Shown here: in pieces, positions 1,815 to 52,562 of the stretch | How the letters are laid out: every line of letters starts with the position of its first letter | Position numbering within the stretch: the first letter of the stretch is position 1 | From: Candidatus Levybacteria bacterium CG2_30_37_29 | GTDB taxonomy: Bacteria > Patescibacteriota > Microgenomatia > Levybacterales > GWA1-39-11 | Reading direction: 5' to 3' | Assembly (NCBI GenBank): GCA_001873215.1 | Contig: MNYS01000006.1 | Location: forward strand, 1,767-54,838 | Length of the DNA: 53,072 nucleotides | The notes under the pieces: model-generated | Seen by the model: only the letters and a program-made list of their open reading frames with translations | What the model was told of the DNA's origin: nothing | Database searches by the model: none | Made by a program: the position numbers and the translations under genes

Positions 1815-2464
1815 ATAGAAATTAGGTGATAGGTGTTAGGGTATAGGTTTTAGAACTTTTCACAACTGAATACTGTTTACCAAATACCAAATACTCGTTT
1901 ATTTCCGCAGGAATAAATTTTAGCCTCGAGATTATACAGATTATACGGATTATATAGTTCATATAAATAGCTAATAATATATAATGACATTTGTCAATAA
2001 CCTAGAGTAATTTATTCAAAGCAAAATGATATATTTTGATAGTCTGTTCTAAAAAAAATCGTCTTGTGAAATTTAGGCACAAAATAGCACGTTACTCTTT
2101 TCACATCAGAGGAATTTTAGAAAAAATTAGTTAAATTTTAAGAACATAATGTATCCTTTTATGTCAAATCTTGTATTTTCACAGATGATACACTTATTAC
2201 CACTTCTTAATATTTGTATACGGTAATAATTTTCATAAACCTTTTTGTTAAGAGTTTTTTCTCCTAGAACTACTTAGAGTTCGCAGTTTGTTAAAAACTA
2301 TTGACGTTTTTAAAAGGTCTAGCCCTTATGGTTTAGCAGAGGAAGTTACCGTGTGATTAAAAACAATCAATTATTTTTGGATTATATTTGTAAGCGATTT
2401 TAAAACTTGCGCAAAAATAAAGGTATAATTCTTGTAGATAAAGCAGGAAATTTTGGCAAAGGAG

Positions 2465-4671: not shown

Positions 4672-5310
4672 TCATTTTTCCGTCTCATCCCGAAGTTTTT
4701 GGGTTTTTTCAAGGATATCAGAAAGCTCTTCTACCTCTTCATCGTCATTTTCCACGTGGTCTGAATGTAAAAGCGAGTCAACATCCTCAATTATTTCTCC
4801 AGTTTTGTCTTCTACCTCTTTTTCAAGCTTTTCGCGTCTTTTAAATTCCCTGCCAAAGAAAAAAGCTATTGGGGAAAGAAATCCGAGAGACCCAATCTTT
4901 ATAAGATTTGATAGAACGTCATCTTTTAATGCCGGTTGAATAAATACGGCGGCAAATCCAAGCAAAAATACAAAAACAGTCACCGGTTCAAATAGAAATG
5001 CTATTCCAAAAAGAAGAAAATATAGTAAGAAGAAAAGGTTTGATTGTATTCCGCCCGTCAAAAAGACAGTCAGGACAATACCAGCAGTAATGACAAAAAC
5101 CTCACGAAGGGATCCGATAAATAATTCATCTCCCTGCCTGCCTGCCGGCAGGCCTTTGTTTCTGCGGCGTTGAATAACAACAAAAATAATGGAAAAAATT
5201 ATAAGAAGGGCAAGGATTTGGGTTATGAAGTCTGAAAGAGGAGTGTTAAGCGTGATAAAAACGAAAATCGTTGCGAGAATCAGAGTGGTGGATTGTTTTA
5301 AGGTTTTCAT
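4672..5310 (-). CDS. Polytopic membrane protein with acidic C-terminal tail, function unknown; carries an in-frame PAGRQ palindrome
   Basis: Long ORF with about 5 hydrophobic segments and an acidic coiled tail (EKEVEDKTGEIIEDVD...). The sequence NKGLPAGRQGDE is encoded by the palindrome. Confidence 0.6.
   Translation of the reverse strand: MKTLKQSTTLILATIFVFITLNTPLSDFITQILALLIIFSIIFVVIQRRRNKGLPAGRQGDELFIGSLREVFVITAGIVLTVFLTGGIQSNLFFLLYFLLFGIAFLFEPVTVFVFLLGFAAVFIQPALKDDVLSNLIKIGSLGFLSPIAFFFGREFKRREKLEKEVEDKTGEIIEDVDSLLHSDHVENDDEEVEELSDILEKTQKLRDETEK
5133..5154. repeat. PAGRQ-element copy (asymmetric variant CCTGCCTGCCTGCCGGCAGGCC), in frame within the CDS
   Basis: Read directly from the sequence. 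It encodes LPAGRQ in 4672..5310. Confidence 0.85.
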
Positions 5311-5385
5311 TTAGAAAAGTTCCTTTCACAATAATCATACCATAGAATAATTCAGTTTTGCTCTGTGATAGAGTTTATTTTTTTT

Positions 5386-5673
5386 GCGTCTTTTCAAAAA
5401 GACGCCCAAAACTTCTTGAGAGTATTCTTCCTTGTTCTTTCTGCCGAGAAAGAACCAAAGACTCTTGTCGTGTCGCGCTCACGCATTACGCCTTTCCCTC
5501 ACTCACTGAAAGAGCCGGACAAGCCTTTCCTCTTTCCTGGCGCTCGCTCGGTCAAGGCTCCAAGCGTTGTGCGTGAAACGACAAATACGTTAGATTGCAA
5601 GGGGAGAGCAGATTAAGAAAACGGCGATTAAAAGAAATTGAGAATTGGAGCAATGATAATTGATTGAAAATTT
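5386..5673 (+). repeat. Hairpin-rich intergenic repeat family, copy A
   Basis: Starts with the hairpin GCGTCTTTTCAAAAAGACGC followed by CCAAAACTTCTTGAGAGT. The second hairpin is GTTCTTTCT-GCCG-AGAAAGAAC followed by CCAAAGACT. It also has the TCACTCACT block and the tail GATAATTGATTGAAAATT shared with copy C. Confidence 0.75.
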
Positions 5674-5872
5674 AAAATTTAAAATTGAAAATTCCTCGAA
5701 GAGGTGTGTGGTGGTCCGGAAGGAAAGTTTACGCTGGTTGCGTAAAAACATTCCCTCCGGAACCGATTTCTCCGATTTAATCGGGGTTTCCCCGCGTCGG
5801 CGGCGAGAGTAGACCGTGCTGTCGGTCTGGTTCGCGTTTGACGCGTGACTGTTTCGTAGGTCATTCTACAGA

Positions 5873-6400
5873 TCAATGTGGCTTCATGGATTTCGATCCG
5901 GGTCCGGATCCTGTCTCGATGATGAATCCAAGAAGAGGGTCCCCAGAGTCTTCCACGATCATCTGCTCCACGAGATTGTGGACCATCGTTTTTGACCGCC
6001 TCATAGCAGTCTCCGATCCCTGAACGTATGTTTCGTGGATGAGCCTGATAACTCGTTCGTGACGCCGTGTTTCCTCGCTTACAGCGAGCCGGCGCCTTCC
6101 CCAGGCGGCTGTCTGGTGCCAAAACGTTGAGAGCCGTCTCTGCTCGTTGGAAATGTCCACCTTGAGGCGGGTTTCGATCTCGGCCAGGTTGTGTTCGTGC
6201 GCCGCGTTTTCGCTCTCGATGAACGGTTTCGCGGCGTTTTGCGCCTGAACGAAATGGTTGTGTCTTGATTGAGCTACATGGAGAAGTTCCAGGAGCTCGT
6301 TTTCGGTTGGCAAGTTTTTACCTTTCTGCGCGTTGCGCAAGCTAGTCCGCCGATTTGGCGGAGGTCGTGAACTTATGGTCGTCTTGTCTTGTTTGGCCAT
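5873..6400 (-). CDS. Island-1 hypothetical protein, basic N-terminus plus predicted helical/coiled region
   Basis: 175-aa ORF that overlaps the upstream ORF end by 28 nt (operon-like). I recognise no family. The Arg-rich overlapping frame 5679..6122 is judged spurious. Confidence 0.5.
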   Translation of the reverse strand: MAKQDKTTISSRPPPNRRTSLRNAQKGKNLPTENELLELLHVAQSRHNHFVQAQNAAKPFIESENAAHEHNLAEIETRLKVDISNEQRRLSTFWHQTAAWGRRRLAVSEETRRHERVIRLIHETYVQGSETAMRRSKTMVHNLVEQMIVEDSGDPLLGFIIETGSGPGSKSMKPH

Positions 6401-7234: not shown

Positions 7235-7396
7235 AACTATGGGGCTACTAATTTTTAATTTACAATTTTTAATTTTTATTGAATTTTCAAGTTAAAATTA
7301 TTTAAACATTATTAATATTTGATTTCAGATTTAAAATTTAAAATTTGTAATTCTTAAGGCTTTAGGTTTGTAGTTGATTTTGCTATACTACATTTA

Positions 7397-10150
7397 ATGA
7401 AGAAAGATAAAAATTACTACAATCACAGTTTAATCGAGCCTAAGTGGCAAAAGTCTTGGGAAGAAAAAAAACTTTTCTCTCCTGACTTGAAAAATGCCAA
7501 AAATCCATACTACAACCTCATGATGTTCCCATATCCTTCAGCCGAAGGGCTTCATGTCGGCAATATGTATACTTTCACGGGGGCAGACGTTTACGCTCGT
7601 TTTAACCGTATGCAGGGAAAAGATGTTTTTGAACCGATTGGCCTTGACGGATTTGGGATTCACTCCGAAAATTATGCACTCAAGGTTGGCCGCCATCCGC
7701 GCGAGCAGGCGGAAATATCAGAGAAAAATTTCTACAGACAGCTGCGCGCTATCGGTAATTCTTTTGACTGGACAAGAACGCTTGAGACTTATGATCCTAA
7801 TTATTACAAATGGACACAATGGTTATTTGTCCAGCTTTTCAAAGCAGGTCTTGCGTACAGAAAAAAAGCAGAAGTTAACTGGTGTCCTTCATGTAAAACA
7901 GTTTTATCAGATGAACAAGTTATCGTAGATAAGTGCGAGAGGTGCAGTTCGACCGTCGAAAAAAGGGAACTGGAGCAATGGTTTTTCAGAATCACAGCCT
8001 ATGCCGAAAGACTTTTGAACAATTTAGAAAAGCTTGATTGGACCGAAAAAATAAAAATAGCCCAGAAAAACTGGATTGGCAGATCACAGGGTTGTTTGAT
8101 AAACTTTCAGGTTGTTGATTTAGACTGTCAAATCAAGGTTTTTACAACACGTCCCGATACGCTTTTTGGATCAACTTTTCTTGTTTTGTCCCCAGAACAC
8201 CCAATTTGTCAGAAAATTGACCAAAAAGACGTCAAAGACTATGTCCGAAAAGCTCACAATATATCAGACAATGACAGAATTACAGAAGGAAAGGAAAAAA
8301 CAGGGGTCTTTAGCGGGCTTTATGCAATAAATCCCGTAAATAGTGAAAAGATTCCAATTTGGATTGCGGATTATGTACTTATGGGTTATGGAACCGGTGC
8401 GATTATGGCTGTCCCAGCTCACGACCAAAGAGATTATGAGTTTGCCAAAAAGTATAATTTGCCGATAAGGCAGGTAATCGCGCCAGTATCAAGTAGTAAG
8501 TATCAAGTATTAAGCAAAAAAGAGGAAATACTTAATGCTAAATACGTAATACATAATACTGATATTGTTGAGGCCTATGCCGGAGATGGGAAAATATTAA
8601 ATTCAGGTGAGTGGAGTGGATGGGAAGTTCCAAAAGATATGGATATGGTTATCGATTGGATTGAGAAGAAAGGTTTTGGAAAACGTGAAGTAACTTTCCA
8701 TCTTCGTGACTGGCTGATTTCAAGACAGAGATATTGGGGTCCGCCGATCCCGATGATTTACTGCAAGGCATGTCATGATGCTGGCCGTTCGTGGTTTACT
8801 GAAAATAAAGCTGCGCTCGGTGAAAGAGAAGTATCAAGTAGTAAGTATCAAGTATTAAGCAAAAAAGAGGAAATACTTAACACTAAATACATAATACATA
8901 ATACTGAAATGAATGGATGGTATCCTGTTTTAGATGAAAATCTTCCGGTGCTTCTTCCTGATGTAGAAGATTGGAAACCCCGTTCAGCAAGTTCGGCAAG
9001 GTCGGGCCTTGCCAATAAGACTGAAGGGCCTTTGTCCTCACATCCGGAGTTTTATGAAACAAAATGCCCTAAATGCGGCGTAACAGCCAGAAGAGAGACA
9101 GATGTTTCCGATACCTTTCTTGACAGTGCTTGGTACTTTCTTCGTTATACGTCGGTTGATACAGAAAGTGTAGCTTTTGATAGGGAAACCGTAAAAAAAT
9201 GGCTTCCGGTAAATATGTATATTGGCGGAGCAGAGCATGCGGTGCTTCACCTTTTGTATAGCCGTTTTATCACGATGGTATTAAATGATTTGAAATTTGT
9301 TGATTTTGATGAACCTTTTACAAAACTCTTTGCGCATGGGCTTATCATAAAAGATGGTGCAAAGATGAGTAAATCACGCGGAAACGTGGTTATTCCTGAC
9401 GGATATATTAAAAAATACGGCGCGGATACTCTTCGAATGTATCTTATGTTTATAGGACCTTTCAATCAGGGAGGGGATTTCTCAGATTCTGGAATTGAAG
9501 GAATGAATCGTTTCCTCAAGAAAGTCTGGCGACTTCTTTCGGAAGCTCAAATTTCAAATTTAAAATTTCAAATTTCCAATCAAATTCCAAATGATGAATT
9601 TGCAAAATTAGATACAAAAATGCATAGAACTATAAAGGATATAACTGAAGATATTCAAAACTTTAAATACAATACCTCAATCGCGAGACTAATGGAATAC
9701 TATAATGTTCTTTTTGATTTTTATACTAAATACAAAATACCTGCCTCGCCGGCAGGCAGGCTAGATACCAAATACTGCAAAACATTAGTTTTGTTACTTG
9801 CGCCGTTTGCGCCGCATATGACTGAAGAATTGTGGCAAAGATTAAAGATTAAAGATTTAGGATTAAAGAATGAAGAGAAGAATCATCAATCAGCAATCAC
9901 CAATCATAAATCAATACATGTAGAGGCGTGGCCAACGTTTGATGAAAAATATTTAGTAGAAGATACGGTTACAATTGTTATTCAGGTAAATGGAAAAAAG
10001 CGTTCAGAGTTTATAGTTAATAGTTCACAGTTAAAAGATGAAGAAAAACTTAAAAGTCAGGCACAAGAAATAATAAAAAAATATATTGAAGGAAAAACAA
10101 TTAAAAAAACTATTTATGTTCAAGGTAAAATATTGAATTTTGTGGTGTAG
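7397..10150 (+). CDS. leuS: Leucyl-tRNA synthetase with multiple in-frame repeat insertions
   Basis: Class I signatures are present: PSAEGLHVGN (HIGH-type) and KMSKS (aa 656-660). It also has the zinc-knuckle CPSCKT...CERC, the editing-domain motif TTRPDTLFG and AVPAHDQRDYEFA. It is 917 aa, longer than I would expect for a bacterial LeuRS, because of the insertions. Confidence 0.95.
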   Translation: MKKDKNYYNHSLIEPKWQKSWEEKKLFSPDLKNAKNPYYNLMMFPYPSAEGLHVGNMYTFTGADVYARFNRMQGKDVFEPIGLDGFGIHSENYALKVGRHPREQAEISEKNFYRQLRAIGNSFDWTRTLETYDPNYYKWTQWLFVQLFKAGLAYRKKAEVNWCPSCKTVLSDEQVIVDKCERCSSTVEKRELEQWFFRITAYAERLLNNLEKLDWTEKIKIAQKNWIGRSQGCLINFQVVDLDCQIKVFTTRPDTLFGSTFLVLSPEHPICQKIDQKDVKDYVRKAHNISDNDRITEGKEKTGVFSGLYAINPVNSEKIPIWIADYVLMGYGTGAIMAVPAHDQRDYEFAKKYNLPIRQVIAPVSSSKYQVLSKKEEILNAKYVIHNTDIVEAYAGDGKILNSGEWSGWEVPKDMDMVIDWIEKKGFGKREVTFHLRDWLISRQRYWGPPIPMIYCKACHDAGRSWFTENKAALGEREVSSSKYQVLSKKEEILNTKYIIHNTEMNGWYPVLDENLPVLLPDVEDWKPRSASSARSGLANKTEGPLSSHPEFYETKCPKCGVTARRETDVSDTFLDSAWYFLRYTSVDTESVAFDRETVKKWLPVNMYIGGAEHAVLHLLYSRFITMVLNDLKFVDFDEPFTKLFAHGLIIKDGAKMSKSRGNVVIPDGYIKKYGADTLRMYLMFIGPFNQGGDFSDSGIEGMNRFLKKVWRLLSEAQISNLKFQISNQIPNDEFAKLDTKMHRTIKDITEDIQNFKYNTSIARLMEYYNVLFDFYTKYKIPASPAGRLDTKYCKTLVLLLAPFAPHMTEELWQRLKIKDLGLKNEEKNHQSAITNHKSIHVEAWPTFDEKYLVEDTVTIVIQVNGKKRSEFIVNSSQLKDEEKLKSQAQEIIKKYIEGKTIKKTIYVQGKILNFVV
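8486..8563 (+). repeat. 78-nt in-frame repeat module, copy 1 (VSSSKYQVLSKKEEILNAKYVIHNTD)
   Basis: Nearly identical (about 4 mismatches) to 8831..8908. It is built from the words AAGTATCAAGTA and AATAC..TAATAC seen elsewhere. Confidence 0.9.
8831..8908 (+). repeat. 78-nt in-frame repeat module, copy 2 (VSSSKYQVLSKKEEILNTKYIIHNTE)
   Basis: Direct comparison with copy 1. Confidence 0.9.
9545..9592 (+). repeat. AT-rich AAATTTAAAATT-type word repeat inserted in frame in leuS (AQISNLKFQISNQIPN)
   Basis: The sequence CAAATTTCAAATTTAAAATTTCAAATTTCCAATCAAATTCC matches the intergenic word repeats. Confidence 0.7.
9740..9760. repeat. PAGRQ-element variant CCTGCCTCGCCGGCAGGCAGG in frame in leuS (PASPAGRL)
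   Basis: Read directly from the sequence. Confidence 0.85.
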
Positions 10151-10151
10151 A

Positions 10152-10385
10152 TCTTTGTACTTTCGTTCCGGCGAAAGTACCAAAGACTCTCGTCGGGTCT
10201 TGTTCATACCATTCAAAAGCTCACTCATTCAGGGAAGTACCGGACTCTCCACCAGTCGGCGGATCGCCTTTCAACTTCTTGTTCCTTCGTTCGTTCACTT
10301 CTTCATGGGATTCACTTCGAATCGACGACTATGATGGCGCGTGAAACGGCGAATTTTGGAAAATGATCCTTGAAAATTTAAAATT
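10152..10385 (+). repeat. Hairpin-rich intergenic repeat family, copy B (lacks the 5' hairpin)
   Basis: Contains GTACTTTCG-TTCCGG-CGAAAGTAC followed by CCAAAGACTCTCGTCGGGTCTTGTTC, the block GCTCACTCATT, and the end TTCATGGGATTCACTTCGAATCGACGAC. It begins 2 nt after the leuS stop. Confidence 0.75.
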
Positions 10386-10397
10386 TAAAACTTAAAA

Positions 10398-11048
10398 TTG
10401 TTGTGTCGTATGGATGAAGGTACCGGCGAATTGTTTTCAAAGCTTCAAGTTTTTGCAAAAAATAATTTAATCATCTTGGTTCTGGGGGTTTTGGGACTTT
10501 CTCTACTAATTGTCGGTTTAATACAATTACTGGGTCAAAAGCCTCCCGAAGTAAATTTCAGTGCCGCACAAGATTTGAAAACAACACAATCAACAGCTTC
10601 TACGAGTCCAAAAATAGCAGTAGACATAGAAGGAGCCGTTCAAAAACCCGGAGTTTTCCGTCTTCCGCCTGATGCGCGCGTCCAGGACGCGCTGATTGCG
10701 GCAGGGGGAATAAGCGCGCAAGCAGATCGGAATTTTATTGAGAAAAGTCTTAATCTTGCTCAAAAGCTAACAGATGGGGCAAAGATTTATATTCCGCGTC
10801 AAGGAGAAGTTGCAACGAGTACTAAGTTAACCACAGGTTTAAGCGTAGACACAAGTCAGTCTGTTCGCGGACAAATAAATATTAATTCAGCAACGCTTGT
10901 CCAGCTTGATACGCTTCCGGGAGTAGGGCAAGTGATTGGTCAAAAAATAATTGATAACAGGCCGTATTCTGATATTTCCCAGCTTGTGTCAAAAAAAATA
11001 GTATCGCAAAAAACTTTTGACAAACTTAAAGATAGCATTGGGATATAG
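10398..11048 (+). CDS. comEA: ComEA-type DNA receptor (TM anchor, SLBB-like domain, helix-hairpin-helix)
   Basis: Motifs IAVDIEGAVQKPGVFRLP and INSATLVQLDTLPGVGQVIGQKIIDNRPY. The probable true start is the ATG at 10410. Confidence 0.85.
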   Translation: MLCRMDEGTGELFSKLQVFAKNNLIILVLGVLGLSLLIVGLIQLLGQKPPEVNFSAAQDLKTTQSTASTSPKIAVDIEGAVQKPGVFRLPPDARVQDALIAAGGISAQADRNFIEKSLNLAQKLTDGAKIYIPRQGEVATSTKLTTGLSVDTSQSVRGQININSATLVQLDTLPGVGQVIGQKIIDNRPYSDISQLVSKKIVSQKTFDKLKDSIGI

Positions 11049-13187: not shown

Positions 13188-13273
13188 ATTTGGGACTTGC
13201 TTTTATTATTTAGACTTGATAGCCTTAAATTAGGGTATAGTTAGATAGGGTTTAGCGTTTAGTTTAAAAATAT

Positions 13274-13684: not shown

Positions 13685-14194
13685 ATGCAGCCGCAAACAA
13701 CAGATTTTAAACAGCTTTTTACGGAGATAATCCATAAACAAATTGTAATTTTGGGTCCTGATATTACAATTGCAAAAGTCAAAAACGTTCATGGGATTGA
13801 AGTGGACAATACGGGTCAGGTAACAGCTCTAACAGGCGATCCGCAAATACTCCTTCAGGCGCTTATCAGCCAATTTGTTGAATTATCAGGCCTTATTGTC
13901 AAAAAAACAATGGAGTCAATACTATCAGCATATCCTGATGGGCAAAGTCTTTCACAACAGATATCAAATATGCAAATGCCTCAAGCACTGGCAGGAGTAG
14001 TACCACCGGTTTCTGTTGCCCCGCAAGCTCCGATTCAACCACCTGTTGAAGTCGCTCAAGCGTCTGCACAGGTATCAGCGCAAGTTCCGCAAACGCCAAT
14101 ACAGGGTGGCACGCAAGACGAATTGCAGAAAATGGTACAGGAAGTTAATGCAAGCATCGCGCAAGTTCAGGGAAGCGGAGAGAATAAGATCTAA
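13685..14194 (+). CDS. Hypothetical protein with P/Q/A-rich C-terminal half
   Basis: ORF located in the operon context between the receiver and kinase genes. No family recognised. Confidence 0.45.
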   Translation: MQPQTTDFKQLFTEIIHKQIVILGPDITIAKVKNVHGIEVDNTGQVTALTGDPQILLQALISQFVELSGLIVKKTMESILSAYPDGQSLSQQISNMQMPQALAGVVPPVSVAPQAPIQPPVEVAQASAQVSAQVPQTPIQGGTQDELQKMVQEVNASIAQVQGSGENKI

Positions 14195-14203
14195 GATTTA
14201 CGA

Positions 14204-14223
14204 CCTGCCTACCGGCAGGCAGG
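14204..14223. repeat. PAGRQ-element copy (CCTGCCTACCGGCAGGCAGG), intergenic
   Basis: Starts 10 nt after the stop of 13685..14194 and is followed by the word repeat TTTATGATTGATGATTG. Confidence 0.85.
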
Positions 14224-14279
14224 TTTATGATTGATGATTGAAGTTTTGAAAAAAATGGTTAATACTAATAGTTAGTTAG

Positions 14280-14363
14280 AATTTTAAATCAAATATAAAT
14301 TTTAAAATTAAAAACTCTAAAATTAATTTAAAACTTAAAACTTAAAATTGAAAATTTAAAATT
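14280..14363 (+). repeat. About 85-nt AT-rich leader repeat (copy X) ending 8 nt before a start codon
   Basis: AATTTTAAATCAAATATAAATTTTAAAATTAAAAACTCTAA...TTGAAAATTTAAAATT is roughly 85-90% identical by hand alignment to 52478..52554. Confidence 0.7.
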
Positions 14364-14371
14364 TTGAACCT

Positions 14372-20112: not shown

Positions 20113-20144
20113 TAACGATCCCGTCTAACGATCCCGTATCGTTA
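20113..20144. repeat. REP-like hairpin TAACGATCCCGTATCGTTA preceded by a truncated half copy
   Basis: The sequence is TAACGATCCCGTC followed by TAACGATCCCGTATCGTTA. The same hairpin flanks the RAYT gene at 48704. Confidence 0.85.
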
Positions 20145-20159
20145 GAGTCCTTTTTCTTT

Positions 20160-20403
20160 GCGTCTTTTCAAAAAGACGCCCAAAACTTCTTGCGAGTATT
20201 ATTCTTTGTACTTTCGTTCCGGCGAAAGTACCAAAGCCTATCGCCGAGTTTTGTTCCGTGCTTTCAAAACCTCGTTACTCACTGAATTTTCGAGTCCCCT
20301 TCGGCGAAAATTCCGGGCGCTTGCTCCTGGGTTTTTCATGCACTTCACTGCAAATCGGCGATTAAAAAATGAGTATTAGAATATTGATAATTGATTGAAA
20401 ATT
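20160..20403 (+). repeat. Hairpin-rich intergenic repeat family, copy C (most complete)
   Basis: Contains GCGTCTTTTCAAAAAGACGCCCAAAACTTCTTGCGAGT, GTACTTTCG-TTCCGG-CGAAAGTAC, TTACTCACT, TTCATGCACTTCACTGCAAATCGGCGATT and the tail GATAATTGATTGAAAATT. Confidence 0.8.
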
Positions 20404-25339: not shown

Positions 25340-25378
25340 TATTTCTCAATTGAGATTCGCAAAGATGAAAATATAAAA

Positions 25379-25397
25379 TAACGATCCCGTATCGTTA
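25379..25397. repeat. REP-like hairpin TAACGATCCCGTATCGTTA
   Basis: Exact copy located 40 nt after the pyrF stop. Confidence 0.85.
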
Positions 25398-25419: not shown

Positions 25420-25585
25420 CGTTAGAATACTTTACGGCTTAACTTTTCTCCTTTCAGCTTCTTTTTCCTTCACTCACTCGATTTTTCATGTGCTTCACGG
25501 CGAATCGCCGATTTTAATTGAGCGCAAAACGACAAATTAAGCGAGAAATTGCGCACAAAACGACGAATAAGGTTCATGCGTAAGT
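25420..25585 (+). repeat. Hairpin-rich intergenic repeat family, copy D (3' part only)
   Basis: Contains CTTCACTCACTCGATTTTTCATGTGCTTCACGGCGAATCGCCGATT, followed by repeated GCGCAAAACGACAAAT-type units. Confidence 0.6.
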
Positions 25586-25866: not shown

Positions 25867-26682
25867 TTACTTTCCAAAGAAGAAGAGGCCAAAAAGAAAA
25901 ATTGCAACTGCAATCCTGTAAATTCCGAATGGAATAAAGCTGTATTTTTTGACGTACGAGAGCAGCCATTTGATAGCAAAAATTGCAACAACAAATGATG
26001 TTATAATTCCTATACCAAGCGCAATCCATTCGTTTGTACTGAAATAAAAGCTCGTTTTGACAAGGTCAAGTCCTGTTGCCGCAAGCATTGTAGGGATTGC
26101 AAGTAAAAATGAGAATTCTACGGCTGTTTTTCGATCCATTCCCATTAACATTCCGCCGAAAATTGTTGCGGCAGCTCGTGAGACTCCCGGAACAACAGAA
26201 ATTGACTGGATAATGCCTATAATTACTGCGTTTTTATATGAAACAGTAGCAATAGATTGATGATTTATGACCTGCCTGCCGGCAGGCACGGTTGATGATT
26301 TCTGATTTTTACGTTTGAGGTAGAGTTCGAGCGCAATAAGAGCTATTCCTCCAAGCGCAAGTGACCACAAAACCACGCTTGAATTTCCAAGTAAATACTG
26401 TTTGATGAGTTTATATAGTAAAAATCCTATAACTCCGGTTGGGATAAAAGCGGCCAAAACCTTTTTTAGCGATTCGGTTTTTGTCATAATATCTTTCCAA
26501 TACAACGCGATTACGGCCAGAATTGCGCCTGATTGTATGGCAATTTCAAATGTTTTGACAAAATCTGTTTGGCTAATACTTAAAAGTTTGCTTGCTAAAA
26601 TAAGATGGCCCGTTGAGGAAATAGGGAGGAATTCGGTGATTCCTTCAACAATTCCTAAAATTATTGCTTGAAAGATATCCAT
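25867..26682 (-). CDS. uppP: Undecaprenyl-diphosphate phosphatase with an in-frame repeat insertion in the central loop
   Basis: Motifs GIVEGITEFLPISSTGHL and PGVSRAAATI. The insert is KSSTVPAGRQVINHQSIA. Confidence 0.9.
   Translation of the reverse strand: MDIFQAIILGIVEGITEFLPISSTGHLILASKLLSISQTDFVKTFEIAIQSGAILAVIALYWKDIMTKTESLKKVLAAFIPTGVIGFLLYKLIKQYLLGNSSVVLWSLALGGIALIALELYLKRKNQKSSTVPAGRQVINHQSIATVSYKNAVIIGIIQSISVVPGVSRAAATIFGGMLMGMDRKTAVEFSFLLAIPTMLAATGLDLVKTSFYFSTNEWIALGIGIITSFVVAIFAIKWLLSYVKKYSFIPFGIYRIAVAIFLFGLFFFGK
26271..26290. repeat. PAGRQ-element copy in frame in uppP, abutting a TGATGATTTATGA word repeat
   Basis: The plus strand reads CCTGCCTGCCGGCAGGCACG, which encodes TVPAGRQVI on the minus strand. 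Confidence 0.85.
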
Positions 26683-28962: not shown

Positions 28963-29086
28963 TGCCGATGTAACCCAGTTGGTACCTGCCTGCCGGCAGG
29001 CAGGGAGTAGCTCTTTCGCCCCAGCACTTTCTTTCCAAATTTGCTAAAATTTGGAATTAGAAATGCGGGGTCCCGTAAAATCGGCT
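28963..29086 (+). pseudogene. tRNA-Thr-like remnant: the 5' half is disrupted by a PAGRQ palindrome in the D-loop and by a hairpin-containing insert after the anticodon-loop start
   Basis: GCCGATGTAACCCAGTTGGTA[CCTGCCTGCCGGCAGGCAGG]GAGTAGCTCTTTCG matches the D-arm and anticodon-stem 5' side of the adjacent tRNA-Thr. It then diverges (CCAAATTT-GCTA-AAATTTGG hairpin) and ends ...AAAATCGGCT, which pairs with the GCCGAT start. No intact T-arm is present. Confidence 0.35.
28986..29003. repeat. PAGRQ-element copy inside the tRNA-like remnant
   Basis: CTGCCTGCCGGCAGGCAG is a perfect 18-bp palindrome. Confidence 0.9.
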
Positions 29087-29087
29087 T

Positions 29088-29159
29088 GCCTGAGTAACTC
29101 AGTGGTAGAGTAGCTCTTTCGTAAAGAGCAAGTCGTGGGTTCGAATCCCACCTCAGGCT
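29088..29159 (+). tRNA. tRNA-Thr (anticodon CGT)
   Basis: Cloverleaf folded by hand. Acceptor GCCTGAG/CTCAGGC, D-arm ACTC-AGTGGTA-GAGT, anticodon arm GCTCT-TTCGTAA-AGAGC, T-arm GTGGG-TTCGAAT-CCCAC. No encoded CCA. Confidence 0.9.
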
Positions 29160-29288
29160 CACATCTTGCAAGCACGATTTGTACTGGGATAAAGAGTAAG
29201 TCCCGAGTTCGATTCTCACCGTTGGCTCAAATATTCCTCCCCCTCTATTTATTTGCTTTTCTAAAAATTAAGAGTATATTGATAGACT

Positions 29289-32705: not shown

Positions 32706-32925
32706 TGCGTCTTTTGAAAAGACGCCCAAAACTTCTTGCGAGTGAAGCCGGACTATTTTTGTTCGTTCACTTGTCGGGTGATTTCACCCCTTCCTCGATC
32801 CTTCGGACGAGGAATCCCCCTGACGCATTCACTCACAAAAACTTAACGTCCTAATGCTTCAATCGCAAGGAGAAAGCATAAATACAAGCGACGAACATGA
32901 GAGCTTTCACGGCGAATCGCCGACT
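32706..32925 (+). repeat. Hairpin-rich intergenic repeat family, copy E
   Basis: Contains GCGTCTTTTGAAAAGACGCCCAAAACTTCTTGCGAGT, the block CATTCACTCAC and the end GCTTTCACGGCGAATCGCCGAC. Confidence 0.7.
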
Positions 32926-32983
32926 AGAATTTGAGACTTTATTGTTTAATAATTTCCCTTTTCTTTGTTATAATATTCTTTGC

Positions 32984-48110: not shown

Positions 48111-48470
48111 ATGACAAGCAATAATAAAACATATGATCTTGAGGAAAGAACTGCAAAGTTTGGAGAGGCAATAATTGACGTTTGTAAAAAAGTATCAAAA
48201 GATACGGTTTCAGCTCCAATTATTACCCAGTTGGTAAAAGCAGGGACGAGCATCGGAGCAAATTATTATGAAGCAAATGGTGCTTCAAGTAAAAAAGATT
48301 TTCTGAACAAGATATTTATTGCAAAAAAAGAAGCAAGAGAAACAAAATATTGGTTACGAATGGTTGTAAAATTGCAGACAGATTTGAGGGATTCGTGTTC
48401 GGTGCTCTGGAAGGAAGCACAAGAACTGACGCTTATTTTTTCAAAAATAGCCATTACGACAAAAAAATGA
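48111..48470 (+). CDS. Four-helix-bundle protein (23S rRNA IVS protein / Avd-like family), divergent
   Basis: Motif YDLEERTAKFGEAIIDVCKKV...IITQLVKAGTSIGANYYEANGASSKKDFLNKIFIAKKEARETKYWLRM. Confidence 0.75.
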   Translation: MTSNNKTYDLEERTAKFGEAIIDVCKKVSKDTVSAPIITQLVKAGTSIGANYYEANGASSKKDFLNKIFIAKKEARETKYWLRMVVKLQTDLRDSCSVLWKEAQELTLIFSKIAITTKK

Positions 48471-48669
48471 AATTTAATATTTATTATTCATTTAAAATTG
48501 TAAATTTAAAATTTAAAATTTATAAGCGGATGTCTATGCACAATTTAATTAAAAAAGTTGTGTTGAGGTGGAAGGCTTTTTTTAAGCGCTTCCCGATAGC
48601 ACAACTTTATACATACAAAATTTAGAAGGACGAGGTTAATTTTTTCTTCTCTTGACACTTGACGACACT

Positions 48670-48688
48670 TGACGATCCCGTATCGTTA
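48670..48688. repeat. REP-like hairpin (TGACGATCCCGTATCGTTA) 15 nt upstream of the RAYT start
   Basis: Read directly from the sequence. It is preceded by the CTTGACACTTGACGACACTTGAC word repeats. Confidence 0.85.
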
Positions 48689-48703: not shown

Positions 48704-49375
48704 ATGAGAAAAGTGTCGCTTACAACAAACAATATTTACCATATATTTAATAGAGGAGTGAATAAGGCCCCAGTTTTTTTCGGCGATGACGATCGCCGTC
48801 AATTCATAAAGAGTATCGTTCATTATTTAAGTCACTCAGGTAAATTAAGCTACCGCTCCAATGCACCCAGCGAATCTAACGAAGCTAACGATCCCGTATC
48901 GTTAGCTTCAGGAGAAGTTGATATAATTTTCCCTAAGGTGGAGATACTTGCATACTGTCTCATGCCAAACCATTTTCATCTATTGCTTAAGCAGAAAGAA
49001 GAAGGTGGAATTACGTGGTTTATGCGTCGCGCAATGAACAGTTATGTACACTTTATAAACGTAAAACATAAAAGGGTAGGTCCGTTATTTCAGGGAAGGT
49101 TTAAAAGCGTGCATATTGAAACAGATGAACAATTAATTCATCTTTCCCGATACATCCATTTAAATCCGGTAGTTGGTAATCTAGTAAAAAACATAAATGA
49201 TTATCCCTGGAGTTCGTTTCAGGAGTATTTTCAGCTTGATAAAAAGAGGATTGTTAATGCAGATGCTGTTCTTAATCAGTTTGCTGACAAGAAGGCTTAT
49301 GAACAGTTTGTGATTGATCATATTGATTACGCAAAGATGCTTGATGCGATAAAGCATTTAACCTTCGAGGACTAA
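48704..49375 (+). mobile_element. REP-associated tyrosine transposase (RAYT; IS200/IS605-like Y1 HUH family) gene
   Basis: The HUH motif is LMPNHFHLLLK and the catalytic-Tyr region is LSRYIHLNPVVGNLV followed by DYPWSSFQEY. The same REP hairpin lies on both sides. Confidence 0.8.
48883..48907. repeat. REP hairpin with a 10-bp stem (AGCTAACGAT-CCCGT-ATCGTTAGCT) inside the RAYT reading frame
   Basis: It encodes EANDPVSLA within SESNEANDPVSLASGE, and the frame is maintained. Confidence 0.85.
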
Positions 49376-49390
49376 ACTGGTAAATGAATT

Positions 49391-49409
49391 TAACGATCCC
49401 GTATCGTTA
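49391..49409. repeat. REP-like hairpin 15 nt downstream of the RAYT stop
   Basis: Exact TAACGATCCCGTATCGTTA. Confidence 0.85.
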
Positions 49410-52411: not shown

Positions 52412-52440
52412 TTGACAGAAAAGAGGATTTGAGGCATACT
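52412..52440 (+). promoter_or_regulatory. Sigma70-like promoter (TTGACA, 17 nt, CATACT)
   Basis: Read directly from the sequence. It lies upstream of the AT-rich leader repeat and the 52563 start. Confidence 0.45.
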
Positions 52441-52477
52441 ATACTATACAAATAACAATTTTAAATTATAAATTACA

Positions 52478-52554
52478 AATTTTAAATCAAGTATAAATTT
52501 TAAAATTAAAAACTTTAACATTCAATTAAAATTTAAAATTGAAAATTTAAAATT
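52478..52554 (+). repeat. AT-rich leader repeat (copy Y) ending 8 nt before a start codon
   Basis: Aligns with 14280..14363. Confidence 0.7.
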
Positions 52555-52562
52555 ATACCGGT

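Follow-up and report, generated by a model that had tools for sequence, protein, structure and literature searches.

We analysed a 53,072-nt stretch of contig MNYS01000006.1 from Candidatus Levybacteria bacterium CG2_30_37_29 (hereafter, the window), in which a short palindrome recurs at six sites. These sites are probably solo copies of a 20-nt self-complementary insertion module that is the hallmark of mini-elements found in other genomes, in which a small GIY-YIG nuclease gene is lodged in or beside a tRNA gene; the nuclease may be what places the hairpin.

The palindrome and its six copies

A sequence check of the 53-kb window found the palindrome at all six sites of the original prediction. 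The consensus unit is a perfect 20-nt palindrome, CCTGCCTGCCGGCAGGCAGG, with the structure (CCTG)2-CCGG-(CAGG)2. Its 10-mer core, CTGCCGGCAG, has four exact matches in the window, and the 18-mer, at up to three mismatches, has seven overlapping matches at five loci; neither was found in 100 dinucleotide-preserving shuffles. The sixth locus, at 9740, carries an indel and lies outside the 18-mer match set. The GC content of the window is 39.7%, higher than the one-third previously supposed for the host, and its best protein homologues point to Candidatus Levybacteria, Patescibacteria. The copies, with the features that adjoin them and the open reading frames (ORFs) that host them, are as follows.

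1751-1770: perfect 20-nt palindrome CCTGCCTGCCGGCAGGCAGG in a long minus-strand ORF, read in frame as NLPAGRQ close to the N-terminus
From 1814, minus strand: the ORF hosting the 1751 copy, which leaves the window at its left edge
5133-5152: unit-shifted 20-nt variant, (CCTG)3-CCGG-CAGG, in frame (GLPAGRQ) in a membrane-protein ORF (4672-5310, minus strand)
9740-9760: 21-nt variant CCTGCCTCGCCGGCAGGCAGG in leuS (7397-10150), one base longer than the unit and read in frame as PASPAGR
14204-14223: intergenic copy with one substitution (G>A), 10 nt past the stop codon of ORF 13685-14194
26256-26270: left copy of an imperfect 15-nt direct duplication at the uppP palindrome (ATTGATGATTTATGA)
26271-26291: 21-nt variant in uppP (25867-26682, minus strand), one base longer than the unit and read in frame as VPAGRQ
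26291-26305: right copy of the 15-nt uppP duplication (GTTGATGATTTCTGA), whose first base is the extra base of the palindrome
28985-29004: perfect 20-nt palindrome in a dead tRNA-Thr, after D-loop position 21 and before D-stem position 22

The genic copies had been described as always reading P-A-G-R. This holds in the window but is a property of the sequence itself, two of its three frames containing LPAGR. The PAGR codons are CCG GCA GGC AGG in leuS and CCT GCC GGC AGG in the other three genic copies. The third frame reads PACRQAG, and all three are in use in other genomes (nine LPAGRQ, four CLPAGR and two PACRQAG). The hairpin of the intergenic copy has a predicted folding energy of -8.1 kcal/mol; its candidacy as an intrinsic terminator was rejected, none being called at 14204.

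Genic copies are insertions

Orthologue alignment, which had been proposed as a check, indicates that the copies in leuS, uppP and the membrane-protein gene are insertions. All 17 aligned UppP orthologues lack the PAGR peptide, and most are 257 residues long versus 271 in the window. The closest of them shares 88% amino-acid identity (83% over the uppP DNA segment) and has unrelated ACAATAA words where the palindrome sits. The net gain over the 257-residue orthologues is 12 codons, corresponding to 21 + 15 nt. Among the 13 LeuS orthologues compared, P0123, P0124 and P0126 read KYKILDTKYC where the window has KYKI[PASPAGR]LDTKYC, an insert of exactly 21 nt, the length of the 21-nt palindrome variant. 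For the membrane protein (11 orthologues compared), the closest, P0361, has RRNK-GED and the window RRNKGLPAGRQGDE, an exact seven-codon insert. In all three proteins, the insertion sites fall in stretches of variable length among orthologues.

Palindromy had been thought to keep the reading frame. It does not: a 20-nt unit shifts the frame, and the three genic copies aligned with orthologues survive as 21-nt (seven-codon) inserts because one extra base restores it. The position of this base differs among the leuS, membrane-protein and uppP copies. A larger composite unit had also been suggested, on the grounds that word repeats abut several copies. In unrelated genomes, short direct word repeats do flank the copies more often than expected by chance, but the AAATAC words at leuS are ancestral coding sequence, orthologues reading TKYKI...DTKYC. 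A target-site duplication at the leuS copy was ruled out, its 15-nt flanking repeat being ancestral coding sequence.

In-frame hosts in other genomes include FtsK, dTDP-glucose dehydratase (RfbB) and ribosomal protein S6. A common insertion site in orthologous genes across phyla was considered for loci L044 and L048 and rejected, the host genes being unrelated. Separately, leuS contains an 81-nt AT-rich element twice in frame (8485-8565 and 8830-8910; 95% identical) that encodes VSSSKYQVLSKKEEILN.KY.IHNT. A similar peptide occurs at the second of these sites in a Levybacteria LeuS of 58% identity (P0150), and the other orthologues are without it.

A tRNA relic in the window

The sixth copy had been placed in the D-loop of a tRNA-like remnant. 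This was borne out: the remnant is a dead tRNA-Thr and holds the full 20-mer. The region comprises three parts, all on the plus strand.

28964-29018, plus strand: 5' half of a dead tRNA-Thr(CGT), including the palindrome
29019-29189, plus strand: 171-nt insert in the old anticodon loop, carrying an intact tRNA-Thr(CGT) at 29088-29160
29190-29229, plus strand: 3' half of the dead tRNA-Thr

When the palindrome and the 171-nt insert were deleted in silico, ARAGORN called a 74-nt tRNA-Thr(cgt). The region from 28964 to 29229 thus holds a clean 20-nt insert in a loop of a non-functional tRNA copy, next to a live tRNA. The same nested layout, a live tRNA within a split dead one, occurs in an unrelated Patescibacteria metagenome-assembled genome (L015). 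We read the region as the apparent relic of a tRNA-replacing element from which the ORF has gone. A functional D-loop insertion or a tRNA intron was rejected, every palindrome-bearing tRNA copy examined in detail being partial or dead and lying beside a live tRNA. A six-frame hmmsearch of the 53-kb window did not find a GIY-YIG ORF or remnant. The window as a whole therefore contains solo palindrome copies plus this one relic.

The palindrome marks a GIY-YIG mini-element in other genomes

At several loci elsewhere, a partial tRNA copy with the palindrome in its D-arm or anticodon arm stands just upstream of an intact copy of that tRNA, and an ORF of ~80 residues separates the two. According to Pfam, this ORF is a stand-alone GIY-YIG catalytic domain (E = 1e-13 to 1e-17). 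The closest solved structures are UPF0213 proteins (1zg2, 3e-11) and the structure-specific nuclease SLX1 (~1e-3), ahead of I-TevI (0.02). Databases list such ORFs, from Bacteroidota and Patescibacteria, under no more than 'GIY-YIG nuclease family protein' or 'putative endonuclease'. The ORF or its remnant begins 20-60 nt from the palindrome in L010, L038, L061, L078 and L109, and a GIY-YIG ORF adjoins the palindrome in L239, a case of phage carriage, as well. L038, with both parts, belongs to a WWE3 genome (RIFOXYC1_FULL_40_10, 897 kb), and members of the ORF family were also seen in the cultured Bacteroidota Ekhidna lutea and Flavobacterium sp. MAHUQ-51.

To characterize this association, metagenomes were searched using an alignment of four such ORFs as the query, yielding 498 relatives; the counts that follow rest on the best 80 of these, collapsed to 56 clusters. 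The palindrome was nearby in 51 clusters. In 49, it lay at most 160 nt upstream of the ORF (44 at two or fewer edits and five more at four or fewer), and in two it lay downstream, in the 3' tRNA fragment. The remaining five had different GC hairpins in the tRNA fragment. An intact tRNA followed the ORF within 60 nt in 42 clusters. In 24 of 30 resolvable, non-redundant cases, taking out exactly 20 nt restored perfect colinearity with the live tRNA. The palindrome follows nucleotides 14-15, 21-23, 32 or 9-10 of the tRNA; most of these points fall within or next to the D-loop or where the anticodon loop begins. The ORF is usually inserted in or beside the anticodon loop. The palindrome is confined to the pseudo-copy and never occurs in the live tRNA, on whichever side of the ORF it lies. 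Overall, these data demonstrate that, at tRNA genes, the palindrome is tightly linked to the gene for a small SLX1-like nuclease.

Individual loci depart from this arrangement. In L061 (3858-4150), the palindrome and the GIY-YIG domain lie in frame within a gene resembling hsdS, which encodes the specificity subunit of type I restriction systems. In L010, a partial palindrome consisting of the right half only lies just upstream of the ORF and a complete one downstream. The GIY-YIG unit carries one palindrome (two in L010) and is not bounded by palindrome half-sites. Whether the hairpin is oriented consistently with respect to the ORF was considered as well, but no such asymmetry emerged, the variants supporting both registers. 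GC hairpins unrelated to the palindrome occupy the usual D-loop spot upstream of the ORF in L122, L158, L180, L186 and L040 (860-1030); examples are CCCGCC-GNNG-GGCGGG types and a 33-nt hairpin in L040.

Distribution, variants and flanks

In a scan of one genome per species, the exact 18-mer occurred in at least 120 genome stretches. The hosts include Patescibacteria (many lineages), Bacteroidota, Omnitrophota, Planctomycetota, Gamma- and Deltaproteobacteria, Thermodesulfovibrionia and others, and cultured Bacteroidota isolates are among them (Winogradskyella echinorum KCTC 22026, Flagellimonas yonaguniensis, Longitalea luteola and Flavivirga). By our own estimate, about 9-17 matches would be expected by chance in the 596 Gb searched. 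Moreover, 121 of 125 matches to the 18-mer extend to the full 20-mer, versus 1 in 16 by chance. The exact 20-mer was also present in 35 viral-contig stretches. The flanking sequences are unrelated between loci: a nucleotide comparison of the window with the other palindrome loci, flanks included, found no similarity beyond the palindrome. Rfam returned no match for the hairpin.

Variants of the palindrome carry paired changes that preserve the stem (CCTGAC..GTCAGG, CCTGTC..GACAGG and CCCGCC..GGCGGG), which fits either selection on the hairpin or self-templated correction. The base 5' of the palindrome is mostly A or G and the base 3' mostly T, the 22-mer A...T accounting for 23% of copies. With respect to the flanks, 21 of 117 copies had a direct-orientation match of at least 10 of 12 bases between the left and right sides, versus 6.5% of random positions and 4% of comparisons across loci. 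The right repeat begins directly after the palindrome in eight of these 21 copies, and the implied duplications span 14-36 nt. Inverted flanks were about twice as common as in controls, the arrangement produced by insertion into the loop of a pre-existing hairpin.

Strain comparison

Six contigs from other, groundwater samples (L202-L207) encode a LeuS identical to that of the window; one is identical to the window at the DNA level and the other five are 99.0-99.6% identical. A comparison of strains for presence/absence polymorphism had been proposed as a check, and it revealed a recent change at the 1751 copy. In L204 (99.6% identical), this palindrome is split exactly at its centre by an extra 21 nt, GCCCACCTGCCGGACGGGCAG, which keep the frame. 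The other five copies are fixed in whichever of the six contigs cover them. Palindromes nested within palindromes also occur in unrelated genomes (L018, L043 and L165). The comparison indicates that the palindrome centre can receive a fresh insertion and, together with the tRNA loci, demonstrates that loop positions and the palindrome's own centre are preferred as insertion sites.

According to our coordinate arithmetic, assembly ERZ909569 of this strain, 168.8 kb long, stops near window position 1771, where the 1751 copy has its edge, suggesting that this repeat or its polymorphism breaks assemblies. Together with the flank duplications, this contig end suggests that the palindrome also feeds short tandem repeats and assembly breaks.

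A model for the spread of the palindrome

The model that we consider probable starts from the full element seen elsewhere, an ~80-residue GIY-YIG gene of the SLX1/UPF0213 type in or beside a tRNA gene. A duplicate of part of that tRNA accompanies the gene, such that an intact tRNA is kept, and the palindrome is a clean 20-nt insert in what is left of the old tRNA copy, for the most part within or next to a loop. The hairpin may enter other DNA hairpins where these are single-stranded, at the tip or loop, or go in at breaks made there. A structure-specific GIY-YIG nuclease would cut the single-stranded tips of extruded hairpins, the 20-mer going in at the cut; it would thereby move the hairpin, acting in trans with host ligation or repair. 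The flank duplications of 14-36 nt and the short word repeats may be by-products of that repair. The nuclease element would ferry the hairpin between hosts, and its horizontal transfer would account for the identical 20-mer across phyla.

Several points weigh against this model. An ORF is nearby at only ~4-5% of palindrome loci, and neither an ORF nor a remnant was found in the window or in the 10 kb past its right end; mobilisation in trans in this genome is therefore only putative. The 80-residue catalytic domain has no obvious DNA-binding module. To our knowledge, GIY-YIG enzymes are hydrolytic nucleases, and we know of no strand transfer among them. The model gives no reason why the restored intact tRNA escapes cleavage. 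Insertions in tRNAs are clean, without target duplication, yet some solo copies have one. Five of the six window copies are fixed across the sampled strains. Finally, the genome also encodes Y1 (RAYT-like) transposases, which mobilise hairpins.

A bolder version of the model, which we consider doubtful, holds that the 20-nt hairpin is itself the smallest known transposable unit, cut out and pasted as single-stranded DNA into hairpin loops by the 80-residue SLX1-like GIY-YIG nuclease. Its targets would be the D- and anticodon loops of tRNA genes, terminators and its own tip, and the nuclease gene would ride in tRNA genes between phyla. Nuclease and hairpin would then make up a new class of mobile element that also yields seven-residue protein inserts and short tandem word repeats.

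Alternative explanations

A serious rival holds that a Y1 (HUH) tyrosine transposase moves the palindrome in single-stranded form, as in systems of repetitive extragenic palindromes (REPs) and REP-associated tyrosine transposases (RAYTs), the association with GIY-YIG genes being secondary. Y1 transposases of the IS200/IS605 type insert into single-stranded hairpin loops and leave no target duplication; a RAYT-like Y1_Tnp ORF lies in the window (48704-49375), with a second just past the right edge; and other small hairpins of this genome also lie in frame in genes. By contrast, each RAYT gene is flanked by its own, different hairpin (TAACGATCCCGTATCGTTA and TTGAGGTGGCACCTCAA, respectively) and not by the CCTGCC palindrome. 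The 1.37 Mb of palindrome loci contain a single RAYT-like match, 1.8 kb from the palindrome. REPs are also typically species-specific and extragenic, whereas the palindrome is identical across phyla and four of its six window copies are genic. Y1 mobilisation thus appears unlikely. Two further explanations are, in our judgement, distinctly improbable. According to one, no hairpin moves and the palindrome is a scar of break repair made de novo: slippage or a templated polymerase adds the same (CCTG)n-CC tail to both 3' ends, which are joined via the self-complementary CCGG into a perfect palindrome. Variants in unit number suggest such a process, with (CCTG)3 and a single CAGG at 5133, CAGG present three times in L010 and L037, and forms that are nested or extended in L018 and L043; the exact placement of the palindrome at loop positions of tRNA fragments beside the nuclease gene, and flank duplications of variable length, which fit filled-in staggered ends, are likewise consistent with it. 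The length of most copies is nevertheless strikingly uniform at 20 nt, and the unrelated GC hairpins at the same spot fit inserted hairpins better than a single repeat-adding activity. We know of no enzyme or template for the addition of CCTG repeats, and neither was seen near the copies. The other explanation makes the palindrome only a cis part of the GIY-YIG/tRNA element, for example blocking re-cleavage or recombination of the leftover tRNA copy or serving as an RNA or terminator hairpin, with the solo copies as decay remnants of full elements. It would account for a palindrome that is always in the pseudo-copy, never in the live tRNA and on either side of the ORF, for the ORF-less remnants in L030, L015 and the window (28964-29229), and for the paired changes that hold the stem (CCTGAC..GTCAGG and CCTGTC..GACAGG). 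The exact inserts of 21 nt in leuS and the membrane-protein gene and of 21 + 15 nt in uppP, however, are implausible residues of a ~300-nt element, and the 21-nt insert at the centre of an existing copy in the sister strain is an independent small event.

It is highly unlikely that the palindrome is a motif selected by the host, whether as a terminator or attenuator, a protein-binding site, a methylation or restriction target, or a PAGRQ peptide. The hairpin is stable and has a GCCGGC/CCGG core, and one copy lies 10 nt past a stop codon and is followed by TTTATGATT. Nevertheless, unrelated genes hold four of the six copies and a dead tRNA a fifth, terminator calling was negative for the intergenic copy, no Rfam family matches, and the identity across phyla is at the DNA level with unrelated flanks. 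The peptide is absent from orthologues, and the orthologue alignments already largely refute this explanation. For the restriction or recombination target that the original prediction had allowed as another reading, we found no evidence. The end of the 168.8-kb assembly at the edge of the 1751 copy is the kind of break that occurs at repeats and could hint at an assembly or sequencing artefact. An artefact or chance is nonetheless a negligible prospect: shuffles gave no matches, six independent assemblies from different samples have the same copies as the window where they cover them, the palindrome occurs in cultured isolates, and reading frames are preserved.

Comparison with known mobile elements

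The in-frame copies had been likened to Rickettsia palindromic elements (RPEs), in-frame palindromic repeats of ~150 bp that form ten families and are found in unrelated housekeeping genes, RNA genes and intergenic DNA of Rickettsia (PMC10969869). The likeness stood insofar as the palindrome is inserted in frame in unrelated protein genes, has no counterpart in orthologues and is tolerated as an extra seven-residue peptide. Size, taxon and partner gene nonetheless place it outside that family: the palindrome has 20 nt (21, or seven codons, in genes) versus ~150 bp, and occurs in many phyla and in this Levybacteria-like window, whereas RPEs are confined to Rickettsia. It also requires an added base to keep the frame and is linked to a GIY-YIG gene and tRNA genes; for RPEs, we know of no partner gene.

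The closest enzyme precedent is SegB of phages T4 and T6, a free-standing GIY-YIG homing endonuclease of tRNA gene clusters. SegB is reported to recognise a stem-loop motif conserved among tRNAs, to carry adjacent tRNA genes along as it spreads and to drive the duplication of segments at tRNA loci (PMC2330249; PMC13096335). The portions of these two papers that were read make no mention of a palindrome like that of the mini-element, invariant, 20 nt long and set in a duplicated piece of tRNA. In both systems, a GIY-YIG nuclease gene adjoins tRNA genes. SegB is larger and of a different subfamily, whereas the mini-element ORF, at ~80 residues, is a catalytic domain with no room for an extra domain and is nearer to UPF0213/SLX1 than to I-TevI. 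The mini-element is, moreover, mostly chromosomal and occurs in Bacteroidota and Patescibacteria.

With REP/RAYT systems, the palindrome shares GC-rich short hairpins in many scattered copies, a small nuclease-type gene flanked by them and the lack of target duplication. The partner gene is GIY-YIG, however, and not HUH/Y1. REPs are extragenic, lineage-specific and imperfect and have a GTAG-type head, whereas the palindrome is perfect, has no such head and is genic in four of six window copies. The RAYT genes in and next to the window are flanked by other hairpins, and the 1.37 Mb of palindrome loci show no RAYT association. [quoted passage not shown] It differs from MITEs in being far smaller, in apparently having no terminal inverted repeats common with a transposase-bearing parent, and in having no target-site duplication of fixed length, 24 of 30 tRNA cases being clean and the duplications of other copies spanning 14-36 nt.

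The element joins two known kinds of sequence, small palindromic insertion repeats and tRNA-associated GIY-YIG selfish genes. Full-text searches of the literature outside subscription for the 20-mer, the ORF-hairpin-tRNA unit, GIY-YIG genes with tRNA fragments, UPF0213 or COG2827 retrieved no description of it. There is a fair chance that the palindrome/GIY-YIG unit constitutes a new class of mobile element.

If the link to the nuclease is real, an 80-residue nuclease gene and a 20-nt hairpin would form an autonomous unit of ~300-350 bp, among the smallest bacterial selfish elements, and the GIY-YIG (SLX1-like) enzymes would be a family not previously known to mobilise repeats. The palindrome would then provide a concrete source of small in-frame inserts in essential proteins (LeuS, UppP, FtsK, RfbB and ribosomal protein S6) and explain some tRNA pseudogene fragments and nested tRNAs. 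That Patescibacteria, Bacteroidota, Omnitrophota, Planctomycetota, Proteobacteria and viral contigs share an identical 20-mer would indicate that it often spreads horizontally, and the 20-mer would be a simple sequence tag for following this spread. As several hosts are cultured Bacteroidota, the biochemistry is directly testable.

Other repeats in the window

The RAYT-like ORF at 48704-49375 has a weak Pfam Y1_Tnp match and contains HxH and YIHLNP motifs. On both sides, the ORF is flanked by a second hairpin family, T(T/A)ACGATCCCGTATCGTTA, which also has one copy in frame within the transposase gene; its members are at 48669-48688, 48885-48904, 49390-49409, 20125-20144 and 25378-25397. The ORF and this family look like a REP/RAYT pair in a genome of the candidate phyla radiation. 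The second RAYT-like Y1_Tnp gene, in L243 (8293-8958), lies ~1 kb past the right edge of the window and is flanked on both sides by the hairpin TTGAGGTGGCACCTCA(A/T).

Other repeats and genes also vary between strains. In L207, a 21-nt hairpin, TTGGCCCCGATTAAATCGGGG, is placed in the loop of an existing hairpin, CCGCCGATTTGGCGG, at window position 6355. Genes for the 23S rRNA intervening-sequence protein (PF05635) were noted at 48111-48470 and in a comparison of window 1816-1899 with L204 268-651; one strain has an extra copy, inserted beside the point where the host ORF of the 1751 palindrome starts. Strains that are ~99.0-99.6% identical differ by the gain or loss of one heptamer unit at 14328. 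Intergenic arrays of heptamer words (AAAATTT, TTAAAAC and others) lie at 5634-5696, 7293-7355, 10370-10402, 14264-14364, 48461-48523 and 52438-52562, and TTTAGGG-like words at 13237, 26703 and 28831. Finally, a family of longer intergenic repeats (TTTGCGTCTTTTCAAAAAGACGCCCAAAACTTCTTG..., GAAAGTACCAAAGAC... and TTCACGGCGAATCGCCGA) occupies 5369-5481, 10152-10222, 20143-20273, 32712-32743, 25494-25519 and 32906-32931.

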